Origin: a virus | Lineage: Duplodnaviria > Caudoviricetes | Virus record (IMG/VR): IMGVR_UViG_3300044655_000346 | Span: 1-56,997 of that record | DNA: 56,997 nt | Reading direction: 5' to 3' (one strand) | In this document: piece after piece, positions 1 to 56,997 of the stretch | Layout of the letters: every line of letters begins with the position of its first letter | Numbering within the stretch: the first letter of the stretch is position 1 | Notes under the pieces: generated by a model | What the model was told of the DNA's origin: nothing | Databases searched by the model: none | What the model saw: only the letters and a program-made list of their open reading frames with translations | Position numbers and translations under genes: made by a program

Positions 1-2
1 AG

Positions 3-626
3 ATCGCCAAGCGCGGCTCTGAGTTGAAGCGTGACCAAGAATTCACATTCTTGAATGGTGCAGTTGCTGCCGCTGGTAACACCACCACAGCACGCGCTAC
101 TGCCTCTTTGGGTGCGTTTGTCAAGACCAATACCGACAAGCAAACCAACGGCGCTGACCCAAGCTACACCACATTGCCAAACAATGCGCGTAGTGACGGT
201 AATGTGCGTACTTTCACTGAAACCATTCTCAAGAATGTGATTCAGAAAGTATGGACACAAGGCGGCACACCAAAAATCCTAATGGTTGGTCCTGTCAACA
301 AGCAGCGCGTGTCCGGTTTCTCTGGCATTGCATCTTCACGCTTCAACATCAACGGTGGCGAAAAGCCTGCCGTGTTGATCGGTGCAGTTGACATCTATGT
401 CAGCGACTTTGGTAATGTGGCCGTTATCGCTAATCGCTTCCAGCGCGAGCGTGATGGTTGGGTCATTGATCCTGAGTACGCAAAGATGACCGTCCTGCGT
501 CCTTACCAACAATTAGAGTTGGCGAAGACCGGTGACGCTGAGAAGCGTATGTTGTTGATCGAATTCGGCCATAAAGTCTTGGCTGAAAACGCTCACGGCC
601 TTTGCGCTGACTTGTCTACTTCTTAA
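3..626 (+). CDS. Major capsid protein, DUF5309/SU10-like (5' end outside window)
   Basis: Frame is open from position 3. Motifs KRDQEF, IYVSDFG and LAKTGDAEKRMLLIEFG are typical of this capsid family. Followed by a terminator. Confidence 0.8.
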   Translation: MAKRGSELKRDQEFTFLNGAVAAAGNTTTARATASLGAFVKTNTDKQTNGADPSYTTLPNNARSDGNVRTFTETILKNVIQKVWTQGGTPKILMVGPVNKQRVSGFSGIASSRFNINGGEKPAVLIGAVDIYVSDFGNVAVIANRFQRERDGWVIDPEYAKMTVLRPYQQLELAKTGDAEKRMLLIEFGHKVLAENAHGLCADLSTS

Positions 627-640
627 TCGACTGAGAGGAA

Positions 641-669
641 TAGGGGGAGGAGAAATCCTCCCCTTACTT
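641..669 (+). terminator. Intrinsic terminator after the capsid gene
   Basis: GGGGAGGA-GAAA-TCCTCCCC stem with GNRA loop, then a short T-rich tail. Confidence 0.65.
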
Positions 670-671
670 AT

Positions 672-986
672 ATGGAAAAACGATTTTTTGATGCAAACCC
701 CGAAAAAGGGATCACGCGCACTTGGCACTACAACGAGGACACTGATGAGGCAACGATTCAGACAACTCAGGATTTGACTGCTGTCATTGAGGCCAACAAG
801 CGCGACTTTGCCACCATCGACAACAAAGCAAACTGGAAGGGTGAATGGCATCATGTTGCCAGCATTCCTGAGTCGGTTTACTTTCAGTTGAAGGCCGAGG
901 GCAAGATTGATGATCCGGAATATATGAAGCGTTGGCTCAACGACAGTGACAATCGATTTTTCAGAGTGAGGCCAGGGAAAGTTTAA
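672..986 (+). CDS. Conserved phage hypothetical protein
   Basis: 104 aa, coupled to the next gene, C-terminal KRWLNDSDNRFFRVRPG. Confidence 0.7.
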   Translation: MEKRFFDANPEKGITRTWHYNEDTDEATIQTTQDLTAVIEANKRDFATIDNKANWKGEWHHVASIPESVYFQLKAEGKIDDPEYMKRWLNDSDNRFFRVRPGKV

Positions 987-1450
987 TGCCAAGACCAAGA
1001 ATTCCTCTTTTTGACAAGATAGAAAGAAACATAACCCGAATACCAGAATCTGGTTGTTGGATATGGATGTCCACAATTGAAAAAAGCGGATATGGCAGAG
1101 TTTGCTCTGGCAAAAAACCTTTTTATGCACATAGAGTGTCATACGAGCAAAAGCATGGCCCTATACCTAATGGAATGATGGCCTTACATCATTGCGATGT
1201 AAAGTGTTGCGTAAATCCAGATCATATTTTTGTAGGAACACAACAAGATAATATGACTGACAAAGTGCGTAAAAATAGACAAGCCAAAGGCATAAATCAT
1301 GGCAATGCGAAACTAACAGAAGATCAAGTGCGTGAAATTAAATCTAGCTCTGAGACATCTATAAAGTTATCCGCTAAATTTAATTATTCTGCATCAATGA
1401 TTCGTGCTATTAAAAATGGCTACATATGGAAACATTTGGAGAAAGTATGA
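986..1450 (+). CDS. HNH homing endonuclease (HNH_3 type)
   Basis: CWIW, AHRVSYE, LHHCDVKCCVNPDH...N and a C-terminal AKLTEDQVREI DNA-binding motif. AT-rich relative to neighbours. Confidence 0.9.
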   Translation: MPRPRIPLFDKIERNITRIPESGCWIWMSTIEKSGYGRVCSGKKPFYAHRVSYEQKHGPIPNGMMALHHCDVKCCVNPDHIFVGTQQDNMTDKVRKNRQAKGINHGNAKLTEDQVREIKSSSETSIKLSAKFNYSASMIRAIKNGYIWKHLEKV

Positions 1451-2100
1451 AATACATTGCAGTCTGCACGCCAGCGCGTGACATGGTACATACGCAGTAC
1501 ACATACTGTATGGTTAATGCTGTCGCGTATCACACGCTCAACACCACTGACGCTGTGAGCCTCAAGATACTGCAAGGCACGCTGATTCAAAACCAGCGTG
1601 CTGATTTGTGTCTGGACGCAATGCGTGAAGGTTGCAGTCACATACTGTTTATCGACTCTGACATGACTTTCCCACAAGACATGATTCAGCGTTTGCTGGC
1701 GCATGATGTGGACATCGTGGCTACAAACTGCGCCAGACGCAGAATGCCCACAGGTCCAACGGCACAGAATTACGATGAGAACGGCAAGCGCCAACAGGTT
1801 TACACCATGCCTGAATCCACCGGATTAGAGGAAGTTGGCTCAGTCGGCACTGGCGTGATGTTAATCAAGCGCGAAGTGTTTGAGGGTATGACTGAGCCAT
1901 GGTTTGATATGCCGTGGCAGACCGGCACTCGCGGCTACATGGGCGAAGATGTCTTCTTCTGCAAGAAGGCGCAGGAGCTGGGTTTCAAGGTGTATATTGA
2001 CCATGATGTCTCGAAAGAAATCGGACACATTGGCACATTTGAATTCCGACATGAACACACATGGGTGATGAAAGAACAGCTCGAAAAAGAGGCAGTCTAA
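1447..2100 (+). CDS. Glycosyltransferase, GT-A/GT2-like
   Basis: ATGA overlap with the HNH stop. HILFIDSD (DxD), GTGVMLIKREVF, GEDVFFC and IGHIG motifs. Confidence 0.85.
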   Translation: MKYIAVCTPARDMVHTQYTYCMVNAVAYHTLNTTDAVSLKILQGTLIQNQRADLCLDAMREGCSHILFIDSDMTFPQDMIQRLLAHDVDIVATNCARRRMPTGPTAQNYDENGKRQQVYTMPESTGLEEVGSVGTGVMLIKREVFEGMTEPWFDMPWQTGTRGYMGEDVFFCKKAQELGFKVYIDHDVSKEIGHIGTFEFRHEHTWVMKEQLEKEAV

Positions 2101-2730
2101 ATGGCATTGACCACCTACACAGAATTGAAGACATCGCTGGCCGATTGGCTTAATCGGTCTGATCTGACTTCAGTTATTCCTGACTTCATCAGTCTGGCCG
2201 AGGCACAGATTGAGAGACAACTACGCACCCGCCAAATGATTGTGCGTGCCACTGCATCCTTTGCGGCGGCTGCTGAGTACGGCACAGTGCCTGATGATTT
2301 CTTGGAAGCCAAGGCCATCAAGCTCAACACCAATCCAGTGACCAATCTGACATTTCAGACGATTGATGCCATGGATTCATTGTCGAACACCACTTACTTG
2401 TCCAGCGGCAAGCCACTGTATTTCAGCGTGGTGGGCAACCAATTCAGACTTTTGCCGATACCTGATGGCGCATACACGGCAGAGTTGGTCTATTACGCAA
2501 AGTTGACAAAGTTGTCATCGACTGTCGCTACAAACTGGCTGCTGACACAAGCGCCTGATGTTTATTTGTACGGTGCACTTTTACAGGCTGCGCCATACTT
2601 GCAAGACGATGCGAGAATCACTGTGTGGTCATCGTTGTATGCCGCTGGTTTAGAGCAGTTGCAGGTTGCTGATGATCGTGGCTCAACCTCTGGCGGCGCG
2701 TTGATGGCGCGTGCAAGGACATTCGGATGA
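2101..2730 (+). CDS. Head-tail adaptor / tail tubular protein A-like
   Basis: MALTTYTELKTSLADWLNR, P.PD..Y and TNWLL..APDVYLYGAL motifs. Lies after the capsid gene. Confidence 0.7.
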   Translation: MALTTYTELKTSLADWLNRSDLTSVIPDFISLAEAQIERQLRTRQMIVRATASFAAAAEYGTVPDDFLEAKAIKLNTNPVTNLTFQTIDAMDSLSNTTYLSSGKPLYFSVVGNQFRLLPIPDGAYTAELVYYAKLTKLSSTVATNWLLTQAPDVYLYGALLQAAPYLQDDARITVWSSLYAAGLEQLQVADDRGSTSGGALMARARTFG

Positions 2731-2918
2731 TGATCACCACCACCAAAGGCGACATGGACGAGTCCTTGTTGCAAAAATCTGTTGGCTCAACTGAGAGCGA
2801 CAAAGAGATCATCAGTTGGGTTGAATATCGTTTGGATGACGAACTGGTACACAGATCAGTCCATGTTGTGTTGAAACAAAGTGTCGCGGCCGATGGCGTT
2901 GCGGCAGCAATAGGATAA
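2727..2918 (+). CDS. Small phage hypothetical protein
   Basis: 63 aa, ATGA-coupled. Confidence 0.6.
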   Translation: MMITTTKGDMDESLLQKSVGSTESDKEIISWVEYRLDDELVHRSVHVVLKQSVAADGVAAAIG

Positions 2919-2928
2919 GGAATAGATC

Positions 2929-3384
2929 ATGGCCAATACTCAGGCGATGTGCACCAGTTTCAAAGGTGATTTGCTGACCGGCATTCACAATTTCGGCACA
3001 GGCGTTGTGCGTGCATCGACAGCCGCTGACACTTTCAAGGCGGCTCTGTACTTGGCTTCTGCCACTGTCAATGCCTCTACAGCGGCTTATTCGACTACTG
3101 ATGAGGTATCAGGTACAGGATACACCGCAGGCGGTGTCACCGTCACATTTGGCACTGCACCGAGCACCAGCGGCACGACAGCGTTTGTCACGCCAAGCGC
3201 CAGCATCACATATGCCGCAGTTACCTTGTCAACCGCATTTGATTGCGTGTTGATCTATAACTCAACCCAATCAAACAAAGCGGTTAGCGTTCATACATTT
3301 GGCAGTCAGACCGTGACTGCTGGGACATTCACGCTGACCATGCCCACCAATGACGCAAGCACCGGCCTGATCCGGTTGGCTTAA
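2929..3384 (+). CDS. Putative virion structural protein
   Basis: RBS AAGGA, Thr/Ala/Ser-rich 151 aa in the morphogenesis operon. Confidence 0.65.
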   Translation: MANTQAMCTSFKGDLLTGIHNFGTGVVRASTAADTFKAALYLASATVNASTAAYSTTDEVSGTGYTAGGVTVTFGTAPSTSGTTAFVTPSASITYAAVTLSTAFDCVLIYNSTQSNKAVSVHTFGSQTVTAGTFTLTMPTNDASTGLIRLA

Positions 3385-3399
3385 CCGAGGAGCAGCGGC

Positions 3400-3924
3400 A
3401 TGGCTGCTTATGGAACAGGCTACTATGGACTTGGTGTCTATGGCATAGGCAATGTCGTCATCAGTGGCAATCAGGCGAATCTCGCCATTGGTACGCTGCT
3501 GGCCAGCCGATCAATTCAAGAAGATGGCACGATTGCCACCGGCAATGTAGGCACAGTCGGCATCAACAGAACTGTGGCCATTACTGGCAATTCAGCCACT
3601 GGCGCTGTCAACTCTCTATTTGCCTCACCGATCATCACAGGCAATGCGGCCACTGGTGCTGTTGGAACGGTGATCGGCGCGGTTGTCACATTCCAAGACA
3701 TCACAGGCGTTGAAGGCACAGGGGAAGTTGGCACAATCACTTTCAGTAGCTCTGTTGTTTTGGAGATTAGTGGTGTGAGCCTCGCTGGATCGGTTGGCAC
3801 AATAACTGGATATGGGTGGGGCGTAGTGCCTGATTCCTCAGAATCTTGGACACCAGTTTCAGACACCTCAGAAAACTGGTCTGATTTAGCAGACAATTCA
3901 ATCACTTGGCAAGAAGCCGCGTAA
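3400..3924 (+). CDS. Putative virion/tail protein with Gly-Val-Gly-Thr repeats
   Basis: RBS GAGGAG, repeated ITGN.ATGAVGTV units. Confidence 0.6.
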   Translation: MAAYGTGYYGLGVYGIGNVVISGNQANLAIGTLLASRSIQEDGTIATGNVGTVGINRTVAITGNSATGAVNSLFASPIITGNAATGAVGTVIGAVVTFQDITGVEGTGEVGTITFSSSVVLEISGVSLAGSVGTITGYGWGVVPDSSESWTPVSDTSENWSDLADNSITWQEAA

Positions 3925-3936
3925 GGGGATTTAAGA

Positions 3937-4440
3937 ATGGCAGATACCACGACAAGCAACCTATTGCTGACAAAGCCAGAAGTTGGTGCAAGCACTGATA
4001 CCTGGGGAAGCAAAATCAACACCGATTTGGATAGTGTTGATGCCGTTTTCGCTGCCGCAGGCACTGGCACATCAGTTGGCTTGAACATTGGCGCAGGCAA
4101 GACATTGGCGGTGGCTGGTGTATTGAATGTCTCAGCAACCGATGCCATCAAGATTGCGTCAGGCACTACGGCACAGCGGCCAGGCTCACCGGCAGCCGGT
4201 CAACTCCGATACAACACCAGCCTGAACAAATTTGAAGGCTACAACGGCACTGTGTGGTCTTCAGTCGGTGGCGGTGCAACTGGTGGCGGTGCTGATACGG
4301 TGTTCTATGAGAACACGCTCACCGTGACCACAAACTACACACTCAGCTCTTCCAACAACGCGCACAGTGTTGGCCCTATTTCTATTAATAGCGGGGTAAC
4401 GGTTACTATTCCGAGCGGTGCAAGGTGGGTGGTTTTGTAG
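3937..4440 (+). CDS. Short tail-fibre protein (phage A)
   Basis: GTTAQRP...LRYNT....FEGYNGT.WS.VGGG motif and C-terminal G.RWVVL, both shared with 41924-42868. Confidence 0.7.
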
Positions 4441-4455
4441 ACCTAAAGGAAAAAT

Positions 4456-5202
4456 ATGTCATCAGTGGTTTATTGGATAGCGCATAAAAGCCATACTGAT
4501 ATGTTCAGTCATGGCTATATCGGCGTGTCCAACAACCATACGAAGCGTTGGTACGCCCATAGCTGGAAAACCGAAAATGTCCATTTTTTCAACGCAATTA
4601 AAAAATATGGTTGGGATAACTTGGACAAAAAGGTCATATTGATTGCTGAAGATGACTATTGTTTAGACATTGAAAAGAAATTAAGACCATCAAAAAATAT
4701 TGGCTGGAATATAGCGGTGGGTGGGGGAAAACCGCCATCGTCTTTGGGTAAAAAGTTTGGCCCTATGTCTGATGAAATAAAAGCGAAAGTCAGTGCATCA
4801 AAAAAGGGCTTCAAACACACGCCAGAGATTGAAGCAAAAGTGACGCAAAACCTGATAATTCATGGCGCACCAACACGATTCAAAAAGGGTCAATCTGCTT
4901 GGAACAAAGGTAAACCGATGCCGTCTCATGTAACCGAAGCAGTTGTAAAAGCCAATACTGGTCGTGTACATTCGATAGAGGAAAGACAAAAGCGGTCAGA
5001 AAGATTGAAGGGTCATGCGGTTTCAGATTACACAAGGGAGCGTATGCGTATTCTTGGTTTAAGAAGTGGTGAGTTTAATAAAGGTCGTGCACACACAAAA
5101 GTTGAATGTCCTCATTGCCATAAGATTGGTGGAATAACTGGTATGGCAAGATGGCATTTTGACAACTGCAAAGAAAAGGAAGAAACCAATGTCATCTCTT
5201 AG
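4456..5202 (+). CDS. GIY-YIG homing endonuclease with NUMOD3-like repeats
   Basis: VYWI...GYIGVS..R, GWNIAVGG, repeated H(T/S).E.K.K units, C-terminal CPHC...RWHFDNC. Confidence 0.85.
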   Translation: MSSVVYWIAHKSHTDMFSHGYIGVSNNHTKRWYAHSWKTENVHFFNAIKKYGWDNLDKKVILIAEDDYCLDIEKKLRPSKNIGWNIAVGGGKPPSSLGKKFGPMSDEIKAKVSASKKGFKHTPEIEAKVTQNLIIHGAPTRFKKGQSAWNKGKPMPSHVTEAVVKANTGRVHSIEERQKRSERLKGHAVSDYTRERMRILGLRSGEFNKGRAHTKVECPHCHKIGGITGMARWHFDNCKEKEETNVIS

Positions 5203-5773
5203 TCTGGCTGGTGATACCAGCGGAAATATCACAGTATCAGCCCCTGCTGTTGCTGGTACAAATACGCTGACGCTTCCAGCATTAACTGGAACTGTTCTTA
5301 CAAACAAAACGGCAGGGACTGTGTTGCAAGTTGTTAGCGTCGCCAAAACCAATGTTTTTACCACGACAAGCACAACTCTTGTTGATATTACTGGGTTAAG
5401 CGTAAGCATAACTCCAACTTCTGCAACAAGTAAAATTTTAGTGCTGTGCAGCTTATCTCTAAATGTGACCAATGGAAATTACATGGCTCAAGCAGTATTG
5501 TTTAGTGGGGCAACAAGAATCTCTGTTGGCGATGCGGCTGGTAGTAGAACTCGGTCTTCTGCTTATGCAACAATTAATGGAGATAGAGGCCGTAGTCCAT
5601 TTTCAATTACTTTTTTAGACTCTCCAGCAACCACATCATCTACAACCTATAAATTTCAAGGTTTAGTAGAATCTGGTGGGACACTTTATATAAACCAAAA
5701 CGCAAGTGATGCAGATAACGCAAATAATGGCCGCAACGCATCGACAATAACACTTATGGAGATAGCGGCATGA
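5189..5773 (+). CDS. Tail-fibre distal module protein (copy 1)
   Basis: GTVLQVV...DSPATTSSTTYK...STITLMEIAA, near-identical to 42878-43462. Confidence 0.7.
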   Translation: MSSLSLAGDTSGNITVSAPAVAGTNTLTLPALTGTVLTNKTAGTVLQVVSVAKTNVFTTTSTTLVDITGLSVSITPTSATSKILVLCSLSLNVTNGNYMAQAVLFSGATRISVGDAAGSRTRSSAYATINGDRGRSPFSITFLDSPATTSSTTYKFQGLVESGGTLYINQNASDADNANNGRNASTITLMEIAA

Positions 5774-5927
5774 ATCACGATGCAATATATGCTCTTTACC
5801 CGCAAGTTGTCTCTGTTGATGATGGCACAGGTGCTTTTGATGCACAAGGGAACAAAGTTGAAATTGACTTAGATGCAGTCAATGCTTGGATTGACCCAAA
5901 CGCATACAAAGCCAAACGAGCATCAGA
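5318..5927 (+). repeat. ~610-bp direct repeat, left copy
   Basis: Identical by eye to 43007-43616 (offset 37,689). Near-identity extends over ~5227-6155 and patchy homology to 7361. Confidence 0.95.
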
Positions 5928-6030
5928 GTACCCATCATTTGCAGACCAATTTGATTTGTTGTTTCATGGCGGCATGGACGCATGGAAAGACGCAATTCAG
6001 GCAGTCAAAGCTAAATATCCAAAGGTTTAA
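5770..6030 (+). CDS. Tail-fibre assembly chaperone-like protein (copy 1)
   Basis: 86 aa, YKAKRASEYPS..DQ.D.L.....W...I.AVK.KYPK, directly after the fibre module. Confidence 0.65.
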   Translation: MNHDAIYALYPQVVSVDDGTGAFDAQGNKVEIDLDAVNAWIDPNAYKAKRASEYPSFADQFDLLFHGGMDAWKDAIQAVKAKYPKV

Positions 6031-6032
6031 CC

Positions 6033-6629
6033 ATGTCAATACTTGCTTTAACTTCTGACACGCTGATTGGTACACCAGCCACAGGAAACATTGAATACAA
6101 CGGTCAATTCTTTGGGACTGACAGCAATGCCGCCAGAGGGCAGTTGCAGAGGATTACTCAAACTACTGCTGTTGCGTCAACATCTGGAACTTCGGTTGAA
6201 TTTACCGCCATCCCTGCGTGGGCAAAAAAGATCACCGTGATGCTTAACGGGGTTAGTTCGGCTAGTACAGGTATTATTCAAGTCCAGTTAGGTACTGGCT
6301 CCACTTCGTACACCATATCTGGTTACTTAGGAGCAACCATAACAAACGCGACTATTGCAAACATTACAACAGGATTTGCTGTTAATGTTTCAGCGGGAAG
6401 TGCAGCAGCGGGAATAATTCATGGGTTAATGACTATCACCAACGTAACAGGTAATACTTGGGTTGCATCTGGAACATTTGCTCAAAGTCAAGCAGCAAAC
6501 GTTTCTTATATGGCATATTCTGTTCCACTTGGCGCTGCTCTTACAGCGGTGCGTGTTATTGCAAGCGCAACTGGATCGCCATCAGACACCTTTGACGCTG
6601 GCAATATCAACATTTTGTACGAGGGTTAA
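6033..6629 (+). CDS. Tail-fibre module protein (INILYEG family)
   Basis: Paralog of the genes at 6633, 43722 and 44304, with conserved ends and variable core. Confidence 0.65.
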   Translation: MSILALTSDTLIGTPATGNIEYNGQFFGTDSNAARGQLQRITQTTAVASTSGTSVEFTAIPAWAKKITVMLNGVSSASTGIIQVQLGTGSTSYTISGYLGATITNATIANITTGFAVNVSAGSAAAGIIHGLMTITNVTGNTWVASGTFAQSQAANVSYMAYSVPLGAALTAVRVIASATGSPSDTFDAGNINILYEG

Positions 6630-6632
6630 ACT

Positions 6633-7163
6633 ATGTCCGTAATAATCGATGGATCAGCAAGCGTCACAATCAACTCAGGTGTGGTACTGGGGATTACCTC
6701 TGGCACTGCTGTTGCCAGCACATCAGGTACAAGCATTGACTTTACTTCTATCCCATCATGGGTGAAGCGGATTACAGTGATGTTTAGTGGAGTAAGTACA
6801 AGCGGAACATCTATTGTTCAAATTCAACTTGGTTCTGGTTCGGTAACAACAACGGGATATACCGCAAGTGCTTCCTACGGTACAACAGTTGGTCAATTTG
6901 GGGATGCTACAACTGGATTTGTTATTGAACCTTCTGCGTCTGCGACAGCGGGAGCTGTGCGTTATAGCTCTATTATTTTTTCATTGTTGTCTGCCAACAC
7001 TTGGGTTTCACAAGGCAATCTTTACACCACATCAACCAATCCAAATGTAACAAATGTTGGGAAAATTTCTCTGTCAGGCGTTCTTGATCGAGTACGCATT
7101 ACCACAGTAAACGGCACTGACACCTTTGACGCTGGAACAATCAACATTCTTTATGAAGGATAA
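6633..7163 (+). CDS. Tail-fibre module protein (INILYEG family)
   Basis: GTAVASTSGTSIDFTSIPSWVKRITVMF...LDRVRITTVNGTDTFDAGTINILYEG. Confidence 0.65.
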   Translation: MSVIIDGSASVTINSGVVLGITSGTAVASTSGTSIDFTSIPSWVKRITVMFSGVSTSGTSIVQIQLGSGSVTTTGYTASASYGTTVGQFGDATTGFVIEPSASATAGAVRYSSIIFSLLSANTWVSQGNLYTTSTNPNVTNVGKISLSGVLDRVRITTVNGTDTFDAGTINILYEG

Positions 7164-7166
7164 AAA

Positions 7167-7361
7167 ATGACACACAGAACAGTAGTTAACTGCGAAACAG
7201 GCGTAGTCACACAAGTCGAGTACACACCTGAAGAACAAGCCGTGCATGATGCGGCAGTAGCGGCACAAGCTGAAGCGCAAGCACTTGCAGACGTTGAAGC
7301 AGCAGCACAAACATTAGCGGAGCAGGAGTACCCTAGTAATGGACAACCAACAAATATTTAA
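7167..7361 (+). CDS. Small fibre-associated chaperone-like protein
   Basis: MTHR.VVN.ETG....VEY.PEEQA, homolog at 44850-45026. Confidence 0.6.
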   Translation: MTHRTVVNCETGVVTQVEYTPEEQAVHDAAVAAQAEAQALADVEAAAQTLAEQEYPSNGQPTNI

Positions 7362-7563
7362 TGTGGTAGTCGGCATTGCTGGCTTTCTTGCTGTTTATGT
7401 TTTTAACAACACGACAAGACAGATACAAAAACTGGAGGACAAGATAAATGAATTACCTAAAGAATATGTGGCAAAAGATGATTACCGCTCTGACATCGCT
7501 GAAATCAAAGATATTCTCAAACAAATCTTCAACAAGCTAGACGCAAAGGCAGACAAACCTTGA
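7339..7563 (+). CDS. Small membrane protein with coiled coil (holin-like)
   Basis: RBS AGGAG, N-terminal TM segment, LPKEYVAKDDY motif. Confidence 0.6.
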   Translation: MDNQQIFNVVVGIAGFLAVYVFNNTTRQIQKLEDKINELPKEYVAKDDYRSDIAEIKDILKQIFNKLDAKADKP

Positions 7564-7607
7564 ACATGGTGTTACATTCTCATATGTTAAATACACAGGA
7601 GAGTGTT

Positions 7608-8096
7608 ATGCCTATGCCTTTTCAAGATAAAACTGGTTTGCGTTTTGGCAGGTTGGTTGTCAAAGAGTTGATTTCTAAAAAACCTGTTGCAAAGTGGACT
7701 TGTGTTTGTGATTGCGGTAATAAGACTCAGGTTTGGGGTGGTCATTTAAGGAGTGGTGTCACTCGTTCTTGCGGTTGTTTATTGACTGATTCAAACAAAG
7801 AGAAAAAAACAACTCATGGTTTGACTAAAACAAGAACGTACAAATCATGGCGTTCAATGAAGATGAGATGCACATTACCTTCTATGCCTAGCTACAAGAA
7901 TTATGCGGGCAAAGGTATTGGGTTTGATGAATCATGGAATGACTTTAATAAATTCTATGAGGACATGGGTGAACGTCCAGAAGGCATGAGCTTGGACAGG
8001 ATTGACAACAGCAAGAGCTACAACAAAGAAAATTGTCGTTGGGCAGATGCAAAAACTCAAGCAAATAATCGTATTCAAAGGAAATCAAAAGTATGA
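7608..8096 (+). CDS. HNH endonuclease (RFGRL/CxCDCG/SCGC type)
   Basis: RBS GGAG before ATG 7608. RFGRLVV, CVCDCGN, SCGC, SW..MK.RC and SLDRIDN...ENCRWA...QANNR motifs. Confidence 0.85.
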   Translation: MPMPFQDKTGLRFGRLVVKELISKKPVAKWTCVCDCGNKTQVWGGHLRSGVTRSCGCLLTDSNKEKKTTHGLTKTRTYKSWRSMKMRCTLPSMPSYKNYAGKGIGFDESWNDFNKFYEDMGERPEGMSLDRIDNSKSYNKENCRWADAKTQANNRIQRKSKV

Positions 8097-8431
8097 ATAT
8101 GGAAAGTTTGAGCTATGTAAAGTTCGGTGACAAAGACGGACTGGGAGAGTTTTTGTTTGAGAACGGGATGCAACACCAGTTGTTCTACGACATCCTTGGG
8201 GACAATGGTATTGCTGTTCAAAAGTATCCGTTGTCAGAAGCTGACCCTGATAACTTGGATGACTGGCTGTTTGTCCATAACCAAGAGCATCAGAGGCTGG
8301 CTAGTATTTTGGGGTTGGACAATCCTTTCCAATTGTTGGACAGTGATTGGAACGTGGAAGAAGATTTTTATGACTGGCTAGGTGTGCACCAAACCATTCA
8401 TCAACAGATAGCAACAGCTTTAGGAGTGTGA
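8093..8431 (+). CDS. Phage hypothetical protein
   Basis: 112 aa with repeated W...H...H motifs, coupled to neighbours. Confidence 0.7.
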   Translation: MNMESLSYVKFGDKDGLGEFLFENGMQHQLFYDILGDNGIAVQKYPLSEADPDNLDDWLFVHNQEHQRLASILGLDNPFQLLDSDWNVEEDFYDWLGVHQTIHQQIATALGV

Positions 8432-8432
8432 T

Positions 8433-9916: not shown

Positions 9917-9917
9917 T

Positions 9918-12511: not shown

Positions 12512-12513
12512 TC

Positions 12514-44846: not shown

Positions 44847-44849
44847 AAA

Positions 44850-45178: not shown

Positions 45179-45187
45179 GAGCTGTAA

Positions 45188-47309: not shown

Positions 47310-47312
47310 ACC

Positions 47313-47978: not shown

Positions 47979-47985
47979 TTCAGCC

Positions 47986-49467: not shown

Positions 49468-49832
49468 TTGATTGGGAAGAGTTTGAGAGACTGCGCCATC
49501 ATGTGGCTGCGGCACTAGAATACTCTGGAGGCAGTCACGCAGTTGAGGATATTGCTGAAGGCATTGGAAAAGGGCATTTTCAGCTCTGGCCAGGTCTTGA
49601 TTCAGTAATAGTGACAGAGATCATTGTCTACCCGCAGTTAAAGGATTTGCACTTCTTCCTTGCTGGCGGCGACCTAGATGAACTCCGATTGATGCAACCT
49701 ATCATCGAATCGTGGGGGAAGAGTGAAGGTTGCAGCCGAGTGTCTCTCGCTGGCCGTAAGGGTTGGGAGAGATCATTTTTAAGAGACAGGGGATACGAGC
49801 CAAAGTGGTTCGTAATGTGCAAAGACTTATAG
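49464..49832 (+). CDS. GNAT-fold-like virion-operon protein
   Basis: VTEI..YP...LH.FLAGG...GC......GRKGW. Confidence 0.6.
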   Translation: MIDWEEFERLRHHVAAALEYSGGSHAVEDIAEGIGKGHFQLWPGLDSVIVTEIIVYPQLKDLHFFLAGGDLDELRLMQPIIESWGKSEGCSRVSLAGRKGWERSFLRDRGYEPKWFVMCKDL

Positions 49833-49841
49833 GGGTGACTT

Positions 49842-50657
49842 ATGTCTAAGGGTGGAAAACCACAAGTACAAAATCAATCACAAACGCAGAATCAATCGCA
49901 AACTACGATGATTGATCCAGAGTCTCGGGCGGCATATTTACAAAATCTAGGCTTGGCGCGATCTACTGCTGGCGGTCTTGGTGTTCAGCAATTTGCTGAC
50001 TTTGATCCGCGCTATGTGGCTGGAGAAAAGGCGCTTTACGAAGCAAGCATGAAGCCCTTTGGCGCTGAAGATATTGAGGCTTTTCAAAATCCTTTTGAAT
50101 CTGAAGTAGTCCAACAGTCTTTGAGAGACATTGAGCAATCCAGACAAATGGCGGGTTTGCGTGACGCAGAGAGAGCCACTGCCGCCAAAGCCTTTGGTGG
50201 CTCACGCGCTGGTGTTCAGTCAGCGTTGACCGATGAAGCGGCCTTGCGCGAAGCATCACGCACTGCATCAGATTTGCGTTATCGTGGATTTAATACAGCG
50301 GCAGAGTTGGCAAAGGCAGCACGCGGCATAAATATGCAAGGCTTTCAAAACGCCATGAATCTTGGATTGACCAGACAGCAATACGCACAGTTAGCGTTGG
50401 ATGCACAGCGTAATCTGCCGCTGCAACAGTTGGCTATTCAGCAGGCTGCAATGGGCGCACAACCCGCCAACCTTGGGTCAACTATGACAGGTACAAGCAC
50501 AAGCACTGGCAGATCAAGTCAGCCAACAAGTCGCAATGTTGCGTCAGGCGCATTGGGTGGCGCATTGGCTGGCGCACAGCTTGGATCAATCTTCCCAGGC
50601 GTTGGCACAGCGATTGGCGCAATTGGCGGCGGTCTGCTTGGAGGCTTATTCGGATGA
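49842..50657 (+). CDS. DNA ejection/pilot protein-like
   Basis: NPFES.VVQ, AFGGSR and a Gly-rich hydrophobic C-terminus. Confidence 0.65.
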   Translation: MSKGGKPQVQNQSQTQNQSQTTMIDPESRAAYLQNLGLARSTAGGLGVQQFADFDPRYVAGEKALYEASMKPFGAEDIEAFQNPFESEVVQQSLRDIEQSRQMAGLRDAERATAAKAFGGSRAGVQSALTDEAALREASRTASDLRYRGFNTAAELAKAARGINMQGFQNAMNLGLTRQQYAQLALDAQRNLPLQQLAIQQAAMGAQPANLGSTMTGTSTSTGRSSQPTSRNVASGALGGALAGAQLGSIFPGVGTAIGAIGGGLLGGLFG

Positions 50658-51049
50658 ACTACTTAACGAACTTATTTGGCGGTGGCAATGCCGCAGGCGG
50701 TATGCGTAAACCGTCAATGGGTACTGGCATGGATTTGTATGGTGGTCAGCCAAGCATGAATCTTGGTATGACTATGCCAAGAAATACATATGCTGATTCA
50801 GCAACCGGCACAGGCATGATGCCACCATCATCGTTTGGTCAGATGCCTACTAGCGGCATGAATATGCAAACTGCACTTGGCGCAATGCAAGCCTTGGGTG
50901 GGCTTATGGGCAAACCAGAGCAACAAGCGCCAATGCCGCAAATGGAAATGACACCAATGCAGGCAGCTCAGTTGCCCATGGGCGGCAATCAGAGCTATGA
51001 AGACTTGATGAAGATGTACGGTGTACGCAGTGGCGGCTTACTTGGATGA
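50654..51049 (+). CDS. Met/Gly-rich internal virion protein-like
   Basis: 131 aa low complexity ending GGLLG. Confidence 0.55.
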   Translation: MNYLTNLFGGGNAAGGMRKPSMGTGMDLYGGQPSMNLGMTMPRNTYADSATGTGMMPPSSFGQMPTSGMNMQTALGAMQALGGLMGKPEQQAPMPQMEMTPMQAAQLPMGGNQSYEDLMKMYGVRSGGLLG

Positions 51050-51057
51050 GGTGACAT

Positions 51058-52878
51058 ATGACTAATGAAGAATTGCAACAGATGTTTGCTGAAACTGCAA
51101 GGATTAGAGAACTTGCTAATCCAGCGGCAGTGCCTTACTCCGACTTCCAAGTGCCAGCATCAAATGTCGCGCCATCATCGTTTGCATCAAACCTTGGCGG
51201 CTTACTGTTTGGCGGTGCTGACTCAGGATTGAACGAGTACCTGTCAAGGGAGCAGCAAAAGCAGATGCAGTCTCAGGCACTGATGAGTGCGGCCATGTCT
51301 CTTCTTAGATCAGGCAGAACAACCACTACGCCAATTGGATTGGGTGAAGCACTCGGCAGCGCGTATGAGGCTGGCACTGCTGGCTACCAAGGCGCACAGA
51401 AGAATGCTATTGAGCAATTGATGACCAAGCAGAAGTTGGATGAAGCAAGGAGAGAGGCAAATCTCCAAAAATTCTTCATGGATCGCTTGTCTGGCGCAGC
51501 ACCAAGCGCGGCAGTTACTCCATCGTTGCCAGTTTCGGGACAACCATTGACAGCAATGCAAGCAGCGGCATTGCCTACGCCAGTTTACGGCGTTGGCCCG
51601 ACACCGCAACGCGCAGCGATGATTGGACAAACATTGCCTACTGAACCAGGAACAATATCACCAGTAACTGTTACTGCAAGACAAAGACCTGACATTTTTT
51701 CTTCATTGACTCCAGATCAATTAATGATTGCTGCACTTAGTCCTAAAGCAGCATTGCCAAAATTATTTGAAGAAAGTTTGAAAACAGAGAGCTTTGAAAC
51801 TATTACTGGTCAAAATGCTGCCGACCTTGGACTCGATCCTCGCGGAAAGTATCAGATCAACAATAGAACAGGTCAGGTAAGTACAGTGCAAGCGCCTAGT
51901 GATGAGTACGAGATTGTTACTGGTGCAAATGCCGTTAAGGTTGGTTTGCCTGGCGTTGGTACTTACCAGTTGAACAAAAATACAAGACAAGCCACATTGG
52001 TTGGAACTGCTGAAGGACCATTCGGTGGCGGCACAACTGGTGCTGCTTACAACATACTGCTGACCGAAGACCCAAGCAGCGCCAAATATGCTTTGGCGTA
52101 TCGTGAGTTGAGTAAGCCAGTGCCAACCGAACAGGTTCAGCCTGATGGTTCTACGCGAATTGTGTACACACAACCTGCACCTATTCCACCATCATTTGCA
52201 AAGCCAAGCTACAAAGGCAAAATTGCTACGCCATCAGCAACAACAGCGCCAGCAACTATTGTTCAGCCAAGTGCTGTCAGTGCGCCTGCGCCAGCTAGAA
52301 GTGCGGTAACACCTCCAGTTGCCGCGCCTGCTGATGGTGCTGTTGCTATTCCATTGCCTGCTGGAGTTAAATCAACTCCACTTGCGCCAAGACCAGAAGA
52401 GATTACAGCATCAAGATCAGCAATAAAAGCTGCCGTTGACTTTGTTGCTGCGCTTGAAAAAATAGAAAATGTTGTTTCTCAAGAAGGAATGCAACTTGGT
52501 GGCATTGGATCGAAAGGCGCTACACAAACAGCAATTTATGAAGATTTGCTGACCAAAGCAAGAAAAGCGGCAGAGCTTGGCGTATTAAACAAAGAAGATT
52601 TACCAAGATTGCAAGCCCAATTAAGTGACCCAACAAACCTTTCAACATACATAAAAGGTCTTGGCGGTCCAAGCTATTTCTTTGCTCAAACAGGTGAAAT
52701 GAAAGATCGCATGATTCAAGAAGCAATGCGAACAAATTTGCAATTTGGTTTCCCAATCATGCAGCTGCCCCAATCATTTACGAAAAAACCACCTCCTCCA
52801 ATTCCAACCACAACTGCAATCAAACCGCCACCAATAATTCAACAAATACTTGAACAATATCCATCAAGGAAGCAATAA
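51058..52878 (+). CDS. Internal virion/ejection protein
   Basis: 606 aa with a duplicated YQ.N..T.Q module. Confidence 0.6.
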   Translation: MTNEELQQMFAETARIRELANPAAVPYSDFQVPASNVAPSSFASNLGGLLFGGADSGLNEYLSREQQKQMQSQALMSAAMSLLRSGRTTTTPIGLGEALGSAYEAGTAGYQGAQKNAIEQLMTKQKLDEARREANLQKFFMDRLSGAAPSAAVTPSLPVSGQPLTAMQAAALPTPVYGVGPTPQRAAMIGQTLPTEPGTISPVTVTARQRPDIFSSLTPDQLMIAALSPKAALPKLFEESLKTESFETITGQNAADLGLDPRGKYQINNRTGQVSTVQAPSDEYEIVTGANAVKVGLPGVGTYQLNKNTRQATLVGTAEGPFGGGTTGAAYNILLTEDPSSAKYALAYRELSKPVPTEQVQPDGSTRIVYTQPAPIPPSFAKPSYKGKIATPSATTAPATIVQPSAVSAPAPARSAVTPPVAAPADGAVAIPLPAGVKSTPLAPRPEEITASRSAIKAAVDFVAALEKIENVVSQEGMQLGGIGSKGATQTAIYEDLLTKARKAAELGVLNKEDLPRLQAQLSDPTNLSTYIKGLGGPSYFFAQTGEMKDRMIQEAMRTNLQFGFPIMQLPQSFTKKPPPPIPTTTAIKPPPIIQQILEQYPSRKQ

Positions 52879-54980
52879 TGGCAGACCCAACTATTGACGA
52901 TCTGTATAAATCGTTGCAAGCTGCTCACGCGGCTGGTGATACGCAATCTGCTCAAGCCTTGGCCGACTACATCAGGTCACTGCCAGCACCAACGCCAAGC
53001 GAAAAGCAGATTGAGATGACTACTGGTGCGCCACTTAGTGTGAGGGCAGCAGTGGGTTCTTCTACCACAATGCAGGACAAATTGGCAACGCTGAAGAAGT
53101 TTTTCCCTGACGCGCAACCATACGACAAAGACAACTTCATCTATACCGATCCAAAAACTGGACGGCCAACATTGATGAATGAAAAGAATCCTGTATTCTT
53201 TGGCGTGCCTTTGCCAACCATGGGTGATATTGCTGGCGCTTTGCCAGAGATTTCAGAGTTTGTTGGTGCTGGTACTGGAGCTGCGGCAATGTCACCTTTT
53301 GGACCGCCAGCTATGGTTGCAGGCGCTGGAGCTGGTGGAGCTGCATTCAAGAAGCTGTACGAGATGGGTATGCAGTATGGCGGCCCATCAGTTGAAACCA
53401 GAGGCGGCACAGAGCAAGCGGCTGGCGTGACAAAAGATATTTTGATCAATGCATTAGGGCAGCGAGGTGGGCAACTTGCTGAGAAGTATCTGCCGCAATT
53501 GCTGACACCAATTCAACAGCAATTGATGGGACTGCGCCAAGGCATACCGCAAGCAGCATCAAGACTTGGTATCAAATTACCTGCTGGTGTGGCTACGCAA
53601 AGTCCTGCTGTTCAGCGTTTAGAAGCTGGACTCGCACAAACGCCTGGCGGTGCTCAAGTCATTGCCCCAAAGTACGAATTGATGCAAGAGCAGATGGGTA
53701 CTGCCGCAAGAAATATTGCTGAAGATATTTCACAAGTTGGCAAAACTCCAAGCGTTATACCTACACCACCATTCAAAGAAAAAGGTGGACTTGGACAGTT
53801 TATTCAAAAAGGCGCAGAGGCTGCTGGGAAAAGATTTGAAGAAAGACGCGAGCAACTTGATGATATTGTGGAAAGCGCTGTCGGATCAAACAATAGATTC
53901 CCAGCAACAAACACAGCTCAATTGGTTGCACAACTCCAAACTGAAATTGCCAAAAGCCCACAAACACTTGGTCCAATTTATCAGCCAGTTATTGATCGCG
54001 CCATGCGTGTTGTGTCTGATGCCCAATCTGGGTTTGGTGGCGTTCCATTTGCTGCGCTTAGAAAAGAGCGAACAAGCATTGGAAAAGATTTAGCTCGACC
54101 AGATATTTCTGGCCTTTCAGATACATCAAATTTTGCGCGTTTATATGACGCATTGCGTAAGGATGTATTGGCTGCGGCTAATCAGTCTGGAAACATCGCA
54201 AGCCGAGCAATCAAATTGCATGATCGATATGTAAGGTTCAATCGTGAAGTGAATTTGCCTGCACTACAAAAAATTGCAGATCAAAATCTTGATGTGAATG
54301 CCGTCAACTATGCAATGGCAGGCACAAAAGATGGCATGGGTAGACTCCAACTATTGGTGCGTAATTTCAAGCCAGAAGAGAGAGACACATTGGCTGCATC
54401 AGTTTGGCAACAGTTGGGCAATGCAAAAGCTGGAATGAAAGAAGGCGCAGATGTTGGTGTTGACAGTTATGAATTCAACGCCAATACATTCTTGACTAAT
54501 TGGAATAATTTAAGCGACAGCGCCAAGCAAGTATTGTTTGGCGGTGAGAGATACCGCAACATTATTCCTGCCATCAATGATTTGGTAAAGGTAACAACTG
54601 GTGCGCGTGAAGCTGGCAAGGCCGTCAATGTATCAAACACTGGTGGCGCTCAGATGGTCACATCAGCTCTATTAGGCGCTAGTGGAGCGATTGGCGGTGG
54701 AATTGGTGGAGACATGACACAAGCACTGCTTGGTGGCGCAGGAGCTTTAAGCGGTCTTGTTTTATCTAGCAACTTGGCGGCTAAACTTCTTGAAAGTCCA
54801 AGATTTATTCGCTGGGTATCAGACACCAGTAGAGCTGTTGTGAATAATCCGAACTCACTGACAACTCAAATCGCAAAACTGTCAGCAATTGCAACGGCAG
54901 AGCCAGGCATGAGCGATGCGATTGAGGCTTACTATACGCAGATCAAACCATTTGCAACAGAAATTCGCAGAGCGAGGTAA
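52878..54980 (+). CDS. Large internal virion/ejection protein
   Basis: 700 aa, Gly-rich hydrophobic stretches, helical. Confidence 0.65.
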   Translation: MADPTIDDLYKSLQAAHAAGDTQSAQALADYIRSLPAPTPSEKQIEMTTGAPLSVRAAVGSSTTMQDKLATLKKFFPDAQPYDKDNFIYTDPKTGRPTLMNEKNPVFFGVPLPTMGDIAGALPEISEFVGAGTGAAAMSPFGPPAMVAGAGAGGAAFKKLYEMGMQYGGPSVETRGGTEQAAGVTKDILINALGQRGGQLAEKYLPQLLTPIQQQLMGLRQGIPQAASRLGIKLPAGVATQSPAVQRLEAGLAQTPGGAQVIAPKYELMQEQMGTAARNIAEDISQVGKTPSVIPTPPFKEKGGLGQFIQKGAEAAGKRFEERREQLDDIVESAVGSNNRFPATNTAQLVAQLQTEIAKSPQTLGPIYQPVIDRAMRVVSDAQSGFGGVPFAALRKERTSIGKDLARPDISGLSDTSNFARLYDALRKDVLAAANQSGNIASRAIKLHDRYVRFNREVNLPALQKIADQNLDVNAVNYAMAGTKDGMGRLQLLVRNFKPEERDTLAASVWQQLGNAKAGMKEGADVGVDSYEFNANTFLTNWNNLSDSAKQVLFGGERYRNIIPAINDLVKVTTGAREAGKAVNVSNTGGAQMVTSALLGASGAIGGGIGGDMTQALLGGAGALSGLVLSSNLAAKLLESPRFIRWVSDTSRAVVNNPNSLTTQIAKLSAIATAEPGMSDAIEAYYTQIKPFATEIRRAR

Positions 54981-54983
54981 ATC

Positions 54984-56381
54984 ATGGCAGACAACCTACA
55001 AGCCACACCGCGCAACGAGTTGCTGGGACTCTTATCTGATGCCATGTATGGCGGCATCAATTACATGAAAGACCCGCGCAGATCGCAGCAGATGCAAGGC
55101 TTGGCGGGTTTGCTGGAGTCTACAGGCATACCGCAAACCACTCAGCGCATGGCGTATGGTGAGCCACTCACCAACATTGGCCGCGCCAATGTGCCATTGC
55201 TCAAACCTGAGACTGCTGATGCCATGATGAATGTTGCGCCATTTGCGCCAGCAGTGGGTAGATTGGCGAGTCGTGCTATTCGTGCCACTGAGGGTATGCC
55301 TGTTGGGATGGGGATTAAACCGATTAATCTCAACAAGGGTATTTATAAGCCTGAGTTAACAATGGAGGAAATGCTCAAAGTAAAAGACATTCCTACTGTT
55401 GATAGGGTAAAGCAATCTATTGATCTTGTTGGTGAAAAAGAATTTGAGAAGATGGTCAATGCTCAATATAAAAAGTACAAACCATCAGATCAAGATCAAG
55501 AGGCAATGCTTGTTGAATCTGTAACTCTTGACATTCTTGGCAAAGCACAAAGATCACCTTATCCACAACAATCCGCATTAGACCTTGCACAGCAACGAGC
55601 CGCATTGCCTGTTGAGCAAGGTGGTTTGGGTTTGCTTGCGAACAATACTGCAATGGATAGAGCCAAGGCGATGGGGTTTGAAACATCAGCGTTGCATGGT
55701 AGTGGGACTCCTGACATCAATGCGTTTGATCCTAATTTAGTTGGAACAAAAGCTGGCAATGCATTTGATAACTATATGTGGTTTACATCTAGTCCTGAAT
55801 CTGCTAGTGGATATGCACTAAATACAAATCAGTTTGCGTTGATTCCTGATGTAAAGGCACTAAACAATCAAATCAACCAAATAGGTAAAGATATATCAAG
55901 CGCATACACCAATAAAAATATGGATAAGGTTGGTGATTTGCGTAAAGAATTATCAGTCTTAATGAAGCAAAAATCTGATATTTATAAAGATTTTGAGATG
56001 GGTAAGTATATTTCTGAAGGCTCTACTACATATCCTGTTTTATTAAAAAGTAATGAATTTATGCCTTATGAAGCTAACAATCAAAATTGGATGAAAGCCA
56101 ATAGACCAGCAATTGAAGAATCACAAAGTCGTGGATTCCAAGGTGTTGAAATTAAAAATGTCAAAGACAATCCAAATCCAAGTATTGGTAGCGTAATTTC
56201 AAACACCTACGCAACAGAAAATCCTGACTTGATTCGCTCACGCTTTGCCGCCTTTGACCCATTCCGCAAGGATGTAGCAACGGCCACCGCAATGGGTGTT
56301 GCAGCACCTGATTTGCTGGCGGCAGAGCCTACACCAGAAGAATTGCAGCGCCGTCAGTCAGCGTCCTTGCTATTCCCATAA
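54984..56381 (+). CDS. Virion-associated polyvalent protein with ADP-ribosyltransferase-like domain
   Basis: ALHGS....FDP, FTSSP..ASGYA, YPVLL and IRSRFAAFDP motifs. Confidence 0.55.
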   Translation: MADNLQATPRNELLGLLSDAMYGGINYMKDPRRSQQMQGLAGLLESTGIPQTTQRMAYGEPLTNIGRANVPLLKPETADAMMNVAPFAPAVGRLASRAIRATEGMPVGMGIKPINLNKGIYKPELTMEEMLKVKDIPTVDRVKQSIDLVGEKEFEKMVNAQYKKYKPSDQDQEAMLVESVTLDILGKAQRSPYPQQSALDLAQQRAALPVEQGGLGLLANNTAMDRAKAMGFETSALHGSGTPDINAFDPNLVGTKAGNAFDNYMWFTSSPESASGYALNTNQFALIPDVKALNNQINQIGKDISSAYTNKNMDKVGDLRKELSVLMKQKSDIYKDFEMGKYISEGSTTYPVLLKSNEFMPYEANNQNWMKANRPAIEESQSRGFQGVEIKNVKDNPNPSIGSVISNTYATENPDLIRSRFAAFDPFRKDVATATAMGVAAPDLLAAEPTPEELQRRQSASLLFP

Positions 56382-56734
56382 AACGCAGCCACCAGCGGAT
56401 CGCGCCTCGGCTTTAACCTCTTACCTCTTTCCCTTGCCAAGCGGAAAGCCTTATCGTCCAATGTCTCGCGCTGCCTAAACCTACGCAACCTCTCCACTGC
56501 TGTCAGTGGTGGAGGTTTGACGGCATCAGTGCCGATGCCATAGCGGTACACCGCCACCAGCACTCTGCCCGATCTGCGCCACTCTTGGATGTGGACCGTG
56601 CCAGCGAGTCGCAGACGGTTGATCATCTGCTGCGCTGACCTCTCGGTGCAGTACACCTTGGCCGCCAGCTCTGGCGCTGTGCAGGCTGTGCGCTGAAGCA
56701 GATCAATTACTCGCGGGAGTCTTGCGGATTTCAT
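56354..56734 (-). CDS. Winged-HTH DNA-binding protein
   Basis: TAPELAAKV..TERS, VHI.EW and RRDPLVAAFYG motifs. Confidence 0.65.
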   Translation of the reverse strand: MKSARLPRVIDLLQRTACTAPELAAKVYCTERSAQQMINRLRLAGTVHIQEWRRSGRVLVAVYRYGIGTDAVKPPPLTAVERLRRFRQRETLDDKAFRLARERGKRLKPRRDPLVAAFYGNSKDAD

Positions 56735-56876
56735 TTCTCTTTACTGCACTCTCAATCAAATACTTTCGCAGCCACAGGCCGCCGCCCAGTTTGCGCCATT
56801 CCTTAAATTGCTCCTGCGTCAACCGCGCCCCTATGATTTTGGCGTTGGTGGTCAACTCTGTCTTTGGTCTGGGCAT
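56703..56876 (-). CDS. Small ribbon-helix-helix-like protein (57 aa)
   Basis: Own translation: MPRPKTELT...ARLTQEQFKEWRKLGGGLWLRKYL. Confidence 0.55.
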   Translation of the reverse strand: MPRPKTELTTNAKIIGARLTQEQFKEWRKLGGGLWLRKYLIESAVKRNEIRKTPASN

Positions 56877-56997
56877 TCACTTATCCTCGGTCTGGTCCAA
56901 CAAAAATTTGATGACGCAAAAGATCACCAGTAGCGTGATGGTGATGGAGAGCACCGCCACCAGCAAGAAGTTGATTATGGTTTCCATACGCGCAGCA

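Follow-up and report, generated by a model that had tools for sequence, protein, structure and literature searches.

The virus record IMGVR_UViG_3300044655_000346 of the IMG/VR database (Duplodnaviria; Caudoviricetes), catalogued as a linear sequence of 56,997 bp with a CheckV completeness estimate of 100%, raises the question of how one whole phage genome comes to lie inside another at a tail-fibre cassette carried by both. The entire record constitutes the window analysed here. Its flanks (1-5317 and 43617-56997) compose a 19.3-kb podovirus fragment, termed phage A, and the interval 5318-43006 closes to the complete 37,689-bp gene order of another podovirus, termed phage B. The parse into two distinct phage genomes is well supported by sequence comparison, and the receptor-binding cassette shared by both phages is real. 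As for the nesting, we infer that it is probably an assembler's join of two phages at the shared fibre segment.

Gene order and the two-genome parse

All open reading frames (ORFs) of the window were compared by tblastn with three GenBank genomes; 70 ORFs were scanned against PHROGs and selected proteins against Pfam. The genes of phage B were monotonic on the circular genome MW202825.1 (34,188 bp) only when position 42868 was followed by 8093: the segment running from 29122 to 42868 corresponded to 31573 down to 19406 of this relative, and the segment from 8093 to 23057 continued from 16712 down to 1170. Similarly, the genes of phage A followed the circular genome MW202879.1 (36,472 bp) only when 4440 was followed by 46842, with window positions 3 to 4440 corresponding to 27066 to 24217 and positions 46842 to 56734 to 21721 to 10279. 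Two exceptions to this order, which are mosaic modules, were the B holin, resembling the holin of the A relative (55% at the amino acid level), and the A gene at 47313-47978, whose product is similar to a C1q-like protein encoded by the B relative (34%). A first-pass annotation, made from the sequence alone, had proposed that deleting the interval restores the gene order of A and that circularising it yields B, and the order of genes in both relatives agrees with this proposal.

The same parse fits the relatives found in IMG/VR. Four scans, three of them seeded with proteins and one with an exact pattern, returned 232 loci, which formed 168 groups by shared 31-mers; having been fetched by means of cassette-adjacent genes, these loci are a biased sample, in which a junction was scored when at least 300 bases were aligned in each region. 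The left and right flanks of A were carried on one locus (up to 20.7 kb), with no B sequence between them, in 25 of the 168 groups, as exemplified by L036, in which 1446-4466 (91.6% identity) is followed by a cassette and then by 45186-51443 (87-95%). The two ends of B were joined in three groups, such as that of L090, where 35689-42404 is followed by another fibre, by 7323-7557 and then by the sequence from 8092 onward. None of the 168 groups carried the A left flank together with B sequence beyond 8097, or B sequence before 42400 together with the A right flank, and the A-B junctions of the window are unique within the fetched sample. The A right flank was accompanied by small B modules located elsewhere in two groups. 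It was also observed that a 210-bp stretch (23599-23808) of the B early gene at 23384-23893 is 97% identical in the A-type contigs L220 and L237, where it lies several kb downstream of the genes of the A right flank. Megablast searches of GenBank phages gave no match for the A left flank (1-5300), and the B capsid gene (78% identity) was the sole match for 18001-43000.

The protein content of the window also separates the two phages. Their capsid proteins belong to different families (SU10_MCP in A and phrog_9953 in B) and share no blastp similarity, which bears out the dissimilarity first noted from the sequence. The large terminase subunit (TerL) and the portal protein are encoded once each, both in B, and capsid genes and lysis sets are each present twice. 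Among the plus-strand ORFs, blastp similarity between A and B was confined to the fibre region, bar one marginal match of 28 residues between the products of 2101-2730 and 39084-39923, whose E-value of 0.001 equals the cut-off. Profile scans located TerL, portal, capsid, endolysin and the RecT/YqaJ pair, all of which had been attributed to B. Proteins of phrog_1574, a family of unknown function, were found in both phages (1426-2100 in A, E 2e-27; 18998-19744 on the minus strand in B, E 1.9e-47), their strands being opposite and their genomic surroundings different.

The exact repeat and the shared fibre-tip cassette

The two copies of the repeat at the junctions, termed R, occupy 5318-5927 and 43007-43616 on the plus strand and are identical, as had been described, at 610 of 610 positions and at an offset of 37,689; their edges are sharp and allow no extension by even one base on either side. 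When the window was shuffled 20 times by mononucleotide, exact repeats reached at most 14-17 nt, versus the 610 nt observed. A second exact repeat, of 67 nt, pairs 5227-5293 with 42916-42982, and a 24-nt patch with 9 differences (5294-5317 and 42983-43006) is wedged between the two exact repeats; in the fibre-tip protein, it alters residues 36, 39 and 42, on the boundary of the anchor domain. This patch looks like the edge of a conversion tract or a selected hinge. In windows of 100 nt, the identity between copies was 88-92% across 5200-5399, and it fell from 96 to 91, 78 and 60% across 5900-6299 on the right, with islands of 76-90% persisting patchily to about 7300/44990. An exact 40-mer of the R core had no match in metagenome contigs, nor did 40-mers from the right of copy 1 (6400-6439) and of copy 2 (44090-44129) match anywhere in IMG/VR; these scans thus yielded no additional junction at strain level. 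No integrase family was found among the 70 ORFs scanned with PHROGs, a scan that mostly excluded ORFs under about 90 amino acids, and the repeat at the junctions consists of 610 bp of coding homology rather than a short core, so the locus does not have the features of site-specific integration, in keeping with the earlier remark that neither an integrase nor a short att core is visible.

In copy 1, R comprises codons 44-194 of the fibre-tip gene (5189-5773, plus strand; phrog_6942, tail fibre), which starts in the A left flank and encodes 194 amino acids, plus codons 1-52 of the next gene (5770-6030, plus strand; 86 amino acids). The fibre-tip gene of copy 2 starts at 42878 on the same strand. 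The two fibre-tip proteins differ at 8 amino acids, all inside residues 4-42; residues 1-43 are a conserved anchor, and residues 44-194 are predicted to form a TNF-like lectin-fold domain. The AlphaFold2 model (predicted local distance difference test, pLDDT, 67.8; alignment of 7 rows) places a beta-sandwich at residues 44-194, and the best PDB matches of this model in Foldseek were the TNF-like lectins PLTL and BC2L-C (E 5e-7 to 1e-5, TMt 0.65-0.75), with the top hits at E 5e-7 and TMt 0.67-0.75. This segment is read as the receptor-binding domain, as the predicted fold suggests. Among 80 relatives of the tip protein in IMG/VR, the match extends over residues 1-193/194 or 6-193 in only 7 (L006-L012); in many others it takes in only about the first 35-50 residues, which form the anchor.

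Beyond R, the remainders of the two cassettes are paralogous, with 51-54% amino acid identity. Copy 1 continues on the plus strand through 5928-7563, with two paralogous tip proteins (6033-6629 and 6633-7163) and two small genes (7167-7361 and 7339-7563, the latter phrog_462). Copy 2 continues on the plus strand through 43617-45178, comprising the end of its 86-amino-acid gene (43459-43719), the tip paralogues at 43671-44300 and 44304-44846 and small ORFs. The lipoprotein-like gene 7339-7563 forms the end of the cassette in B and its relatives, and the stretch 7323-7557 adjoins the fibre region in the B relatives L090 and L093. Homologues of this gene (68-70%) also stand directly before the homologue of 45224-45886 in the A-type L199, L206 and L207, and for that reason it is regarded as a cassette end module common to both lineages. 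In the A-type L036 and L052, most cassette segments are nearer copy 2 than copy 1, one of them matching at 92.7% and 83.2%, respectively. An assignment of the right halves of the cassette to A or B was attempted and abandoned, given that the B relatives carry unrelated fibres and that the A relatives resemble copy 2 in most, not all, segments.

Moreover, the repeat recurs in nature. L006 and L007, which come from two other IMG samples and have an A-like background, carry R at about 99% identity, with 5 private single-nucleotide polymorphisms (SNPs) each in 610 bp, and this recurrence shows the shared cassette to be real and recently exchanged, as the first-pass annotation had supposed for two unrelated phages. 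The capsid region of both contigs is 94-95% identical overall to the window; L006 is 99.8-100% identical over 1-1700 and 80-97% per 200 nt over 1800-2728, the next 2.5 kb or so being unrelated, and L007 runs on into an A-type downstream gene. On the left of R, both contigs carry the copy-1 allele at 9 of 9 discriminating sites (5294-5317); on the right, they carry it at 9 of 10 sites (5928-6077), the tenth fitting neither copy, then copy-2 alleles at 11 sites (6081-6158) and thereafter a mixture. Since copy-1 alleles lie on both sides of R in these contigs, the combination of copy-1 left flank, R and copy-1 right flank is natural in an A-like background. The proposal that L006 and L007 represent the true A was rejected, since they switch from copy 1 to copy 2 at 6077-6081, a place that has no exact repeat, and so represent another natural mosaic, the third, and not a parent. 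The allele pattern around R is a patchwork of conversion tracts with differing endpoints, as would arise from repeated homologous exchange.

One molecule or an assembly join

A search of sequencing runs seeded with 2318-12317 retrieved X1, the likely source run, with 0.99 of the words, and the lake-water runs X2 (0.58), X3 (0.44) and X4 (0.28); they were compared as Logan contigs across 1-20000, contig depth being a coarse measure. In X1, the A contig adjoining R (3348-5256, ending inside the 67-nt repeat) had a depth of 14.8, three A contigs further left had depths of 8.5, 10.2 and 12.8, three B contigs had depths of 15.3, 12.7 (a single 10.7-kb contig) and 14.8, and the repeat bin reached 23.2. 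A contig spanning 5591-6085 (depth 19.7, 0 differences) runs over the right edge of R and on into sequence of copy 1, and none of the contigs listed bridges all of R. A step in coverage at the repeats had been proposed as the sign that would speak against a physical cointegrate; no such step was observed in X1, so the cointegrate was not refuted by this comparison, although the far left of A was shallower, its exact-match contigs at 913-1748 having depths of 8.5-10.2, under the 12.7-14.8 of B. An equal abundance of A and B with R doubled thus holds roughly beside the junction but not at the far left of A, whose lower depth hints, weakly, that the two phages are not linked at a strict 1:1 ratio.

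In the lake samples X2 and X3, which belong to other studies, B pieces with 0 differences were found (five listed in each, spread over 6373-18632, at depths of about 3-4.6), and on these grounds B is a circulating phage in its own right. The A segment 3336-4669 had near-zero cover in these two runs (0.67/1.07 and 0/0.11) while B was covered, an absence that proves nothing here. One X3 contig leads from copy-2-type upstream sequence into R; this junction is present in both forms of the locus and is non-discriminating. At 17400, the depth in X1 was 177, as compared with about 13 across the rest of B, and because of this depth the holin region of B (17389-17830) is regarded as common, in near-identical form, to a far more abundant third phage; contigs of X1 and X2 carry the same unlike sequence before 17389.

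Three endonuclease ORFs of the window are present or absent among near relatives, with clean junctions; 986-1450 was assigned by Pfam HNH_3, and 4456-5202 and 7560-8096 by PHROG only. The first is absent in L007, L036 and L166, where window position 976 joins 1443-1446, and is skipped by X2 contigs (929/976 to 1443). The second is absent in L036, L037 and L052, in which 4466 joins directly to 42866-like sequence. The third is absent in L090 and L093 (7557/7569 joins 8092/8094) and is skipped by an X4 contig (7569 to 8113). The gene at 4456-5202 was inserted at the 5′ end of the A fibre-tip gene, whose ribosome site and first codons it reuses: there is 1 mismatch between 4444-4466 and 42866-42888, and 5189 is where the fibre gene starts anew. 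The B allele retains an uninterrupted site at the start of its fibre-tip gene. An X3 contig joining 4466 to 5216 was considered as an endonuclease-free A allele and set aside, given that its 16 bridging letters equal window 42889-42904 and are equally the copy-2 junction of B.

The reading preferred here, that of an assembly join, supposes that two lake-water podoviruses co-occur, namely A, with an SU10-type capsid and a P22-gp10-like protein, and the 37,689-bp B. The 610-bp fibre-tip module would have been recently exchanged between them by homologous recombination between conserved flanks, these being the N-terminal anchor codons upstream and the region of the small gene and tip paralogues downstream. 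The assembler would then have followed a path from A into the shared 610-bp node, once round the circular B and out again into A, and the real molecules would be A left flank, R and A right flank in one genome and a circular B in the other. This join is favoured because one contig holds a pair of unrelated capsid genes and a pair of lysis sets, because gene order fits two separate circular relatives and because the IMG/VR groups held 25 A-A and 3 B-B junctions and no A-B junction. Identical repeats stand at both junctions, and A and B are each colinear with genomes that lack the other part, as expected of a chimera. A cointegrate would measure 57 kb or more, a figure that rises to about 74-77 kb should A be as large as its relatives; it would exceed the 34-39 kb of those genomes and presumably could not fit either capsid, which also favours the join, as does the independent occurrence of B in X2 and X3. 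Abundant inter-phage cointegrates are generally rare, and this too argues for an assembly join. Moreover, such chimeras are documented, which supports the same reading: assemblers tend to form chimeras at regions common to co-existing viruses (PMC5610896), and repeat regions in mosaic phages likewise yield them (PMC10104058).

Several observations weigh against an assembly join, and some of them recommend a real cointegrate, in which a single homologous crossover in the fibre-tip segment during co-infection would have put a circular or concatemeric B into A, by means of the RecT/YqaJ proteins of B or of host recombination, and the product would have persisted as a replicative intermediate or a non-packaged replicon abundant enough to assemble. 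The X1 depths beside R (14.8 for A, 12.7-15.3 for B and, at about their sum, 23.2 for R) are the pattern predicted by a 1:1 cointegrate, although similar depth also favours joining by an assembler and discriminates little. No strain-level junction of A left flank, R and A right flank, or of B end, R and B start, was present among the Logan contigs examined. The flank combination of copy 1, found in the other samples that yielded L006 and L007, fits slightly better with a copy 1 that is truly contiguous in the form assembled, and B is not a single clean loop of the assembly graph, its holin region being shared at a depth of 177, which makes an error of loop traversal less automatic. In addition, the exact direct repeats bound precisely one B genome length, B encodes both RecT and a YqaJ-type exonuclease, and a common receptor-binding domain makes a common host plausible. 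A cointegrate is nevertheless unlikely, considering its size, probably about 75 kb, the lack of A-B junctions in IMG/VR, the identical B sequence in two other samples and, weakly, the shallower A contigs at the left end in X1. It is quite unlikely that a double-phage replicon, too large for either capsid, is maintained at about 1:1 in co-infected lake bacteria, with the endonuclease genes possibly supplying the initiating breaks. As a whole, the first-pass picture of B nested in A, which had been offered as either a cointegrate or an assembler chimera, retains its two-genome parse and its shared cassette, whereas the single molecule is unproven, prior odds speaking rather for an assembly join.

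Two other explanations concern the identity of R. One supposes that the assembler merged two slightly different fibre alleles into a consensus and used it twice, in which case the full identity and the recent exchange would be unreal; a de Bruijn assembler would indeed output the same node sequence twice, and the break of an X1 Logan contig inside R, at 5591, suggests variation in R within the sample. Such a collapse is highly improbable, since L006 and L007 carry the core with so few private SNPs that its near-identity is reproducible irrespective of their genomic background, the X1 contig 5591-6085 matches with 0 differences and the SNP-dense edge at 5294-5317 was assembled separately for each copy. 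The other attributes the exchange to homing: if a co-infecting phage such as B lacked the endonuclease gene, its allele would be cleaved by the product of 4456-5202, and the break would be repaired from A with the flanking fibre sequence copied along. The position of this gene exactly at the start of the fibre gene, with the reuse of its ribosome site and first codons, its absence from near relatives, the uninterrupted B allele and the two further polymorphic HNH genes that flank structural modules all agree with this scenario, and free-standing phage endonucleases, such as SegB (PMC2330249) and mobE (PMC2790892), are known to convert flanking DNA. Against it, the shared gene is at its most diverged (88-92%) in the 129 nt that separate R from the insertion site, B has not acquired the endonuclease gene, the cleavage site is only hypothetical and ordinary homologous recombination accounts equally well for the patchwork; a homing event is thus very unlikely to be the source of the exchange.

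Gene content and biological meaning

The A left flank (1-5317, plus strand) is colinear with MW202879.1 from 27066 to 24217 and was annotated by PHROG and Pfam matches. It opens with the capsid gene, truncated by the contig start to the C-terminal 207 amino acids (3-626; Pfam SU10_MCP, 1.5e-51), and continues with the free-standing HNH homing endonuclease gene (986-1450; HNH_3, 3.7e-13), a virion or tail-tubular-like protein (2101-2730), the proximal fibre gene (3937-4440) and the homing endonuclease gene 4456-5202 (phrog_314, 2e-24), all on the plus strand. The right flank (45224-56997, plus strand), colinear with 21721 to 10279 of the same relative, encodes, also on the plus strand, a 220-amino-acid protein with no PHROG or Pfam match (45224-45886), a spanin (46366-46845), an M15 endolysin (46842-47309) and a P22-gp10-like structural protein of 493 amino acids (47986-49467), the last three by profile matches, followed by large virion proteins (51058-56381). 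Homologues of the 220-amino-acid protein are widespread, with at least 599 stretches in IMG/VR at up to 96% amino acid identity, and among the matches listed they always lie between the fibre cassette and the lysis genes. Relatives of the 493-amino-acid protein in genome contigs are distant (46-65% identity) and carry no information on the junction. One of them (46%) lies inside L239, a 1.64-Mb contig of a metagenome-assembled genome of an uncultured proteobacterium, and for this reason the wider A-like group may include prophages.

Phage B consists of three blocks. The first (8093-18171, plus strand), colinear with MW202825.1 from 16712 to 6637, contains large virion or ejection-type proteins (8861-15093), which have no family match and whose ejection role is suggested by position alone, small genes, and lysis genes recognized by profile matches, namely those of the holin (17100-17612) and the endolysin (17830-18171), all on the plus strand; it is preceded on that strand by the HNH homing endonuclease gene at 7560-8096 (phrog_374, 9.8e-60). 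The early region (18125-28962, minus strand; colinear with 4727 to 1170) encodes, by profile matches and on the minus strand, RecT (20900-21760), a YqaJ/RecE-type exonuclease (22164-23057) and a RusA-like or sliding-clamp-like protein (26810-27445). The packaging and structural block (29122-43006, plus strand), colinear with 31573 to 19406 at 40-89% amino acid identity, carries on the plus strand TerL (30234-31988), portal (33648-35294), a tail protein (39926-41923) and the proximal fibre (41924-42868), each with a profile match, and the phrog_9953 capsid gene (36976-37977), whose DNA is 78% identical to its GenBank match. Pfam gave nothing above its curated cut-offs for the cassette proteins, the endonucleases of 4456-5202 and 7560-8096 or the large virion proteins, the sole exception being the product of 54984-56381, about 50 residues of which matched HlyD_2 marginally.

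The window resembles in several respects the systems described so far. The exchange of tail-fibre modules between unrelated tailed phages, a classical form of mosaicism, was reportedly described by Haggard-Ljungquist et al. in 1992. As in that exchange, A and B have a 100% identical receptor-binding segment next to unrelated capsid, portal and terminase genes, with conserved flanks as recombination substrates and an identity that decays on both sides; unlike it, the unit is small here, 610 bp covering one TNF-like lectin-fold domain and 52 codons of the next gene, and it lies among conversion tracts of greater age, with polymorphic genes for homing endonucleases on its borders. The beta-sandwich predicted for residues 44-194 is like that of the TNF/C1q-like trimeric lectins PLTL of Photorhabdus (9ib9) and the N-terminal domain of BC2L-C of Burkholderia (2wq4), but the sequence identity is only 17-19%, no Pfam family was detected, the fold is a prediction at the moderate pLDDT given above, and any sugar binding is putative. 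With the free-standing homing endonucleases of T4-like phages, such as SegB and mobE, the window shares HNH/Seg-like ORFs between structural genes and their presence or absence in near-identical genomes, at clean junctions resembling excisions; unlike SegB and mobE, its putative endonucleases are known from their genes alone, and only 986-1450 reaches the Pfam threshold. Finally, chimeric virome and metagenome contigs (Roux et al. 2017, PMC5610896; the Phables preprint, PMC10104058) likewise join two genomes at a highly similar region longer than typical short reads, each part being colinear with independent relatives; in place of a plain end-to-end switch, a whole circular genome is traversed here exactly once from one copy of the shared node to the other, which produces the nested look.

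If the join is an artefact, two entries should replace the record, one for the A fragment and one for the complete B genome of 37.7 kb. The record illustrates cleanly how, in sequence catalogues, a phage genome can be threaded into another by a receptor-binding module that both possess. The finding would be surprising only if the cointegrate were physical, in which case a natural and abundant inter-family phage cointegrate would have been caught in a metagenome. The robust part is that two unrelated freshwater podoviruses carry the same predicted TNF-like lectin-fold domain, encoded by DNA that is 100% identical. Biologically, this is ordinary mosaicism of tail fibres, a known phenomenon of which this is a newly resolved instance, and the shared receptor-binding domain, as far as sequence can tell, implies a shared host and ongoing exchange between the two phages.

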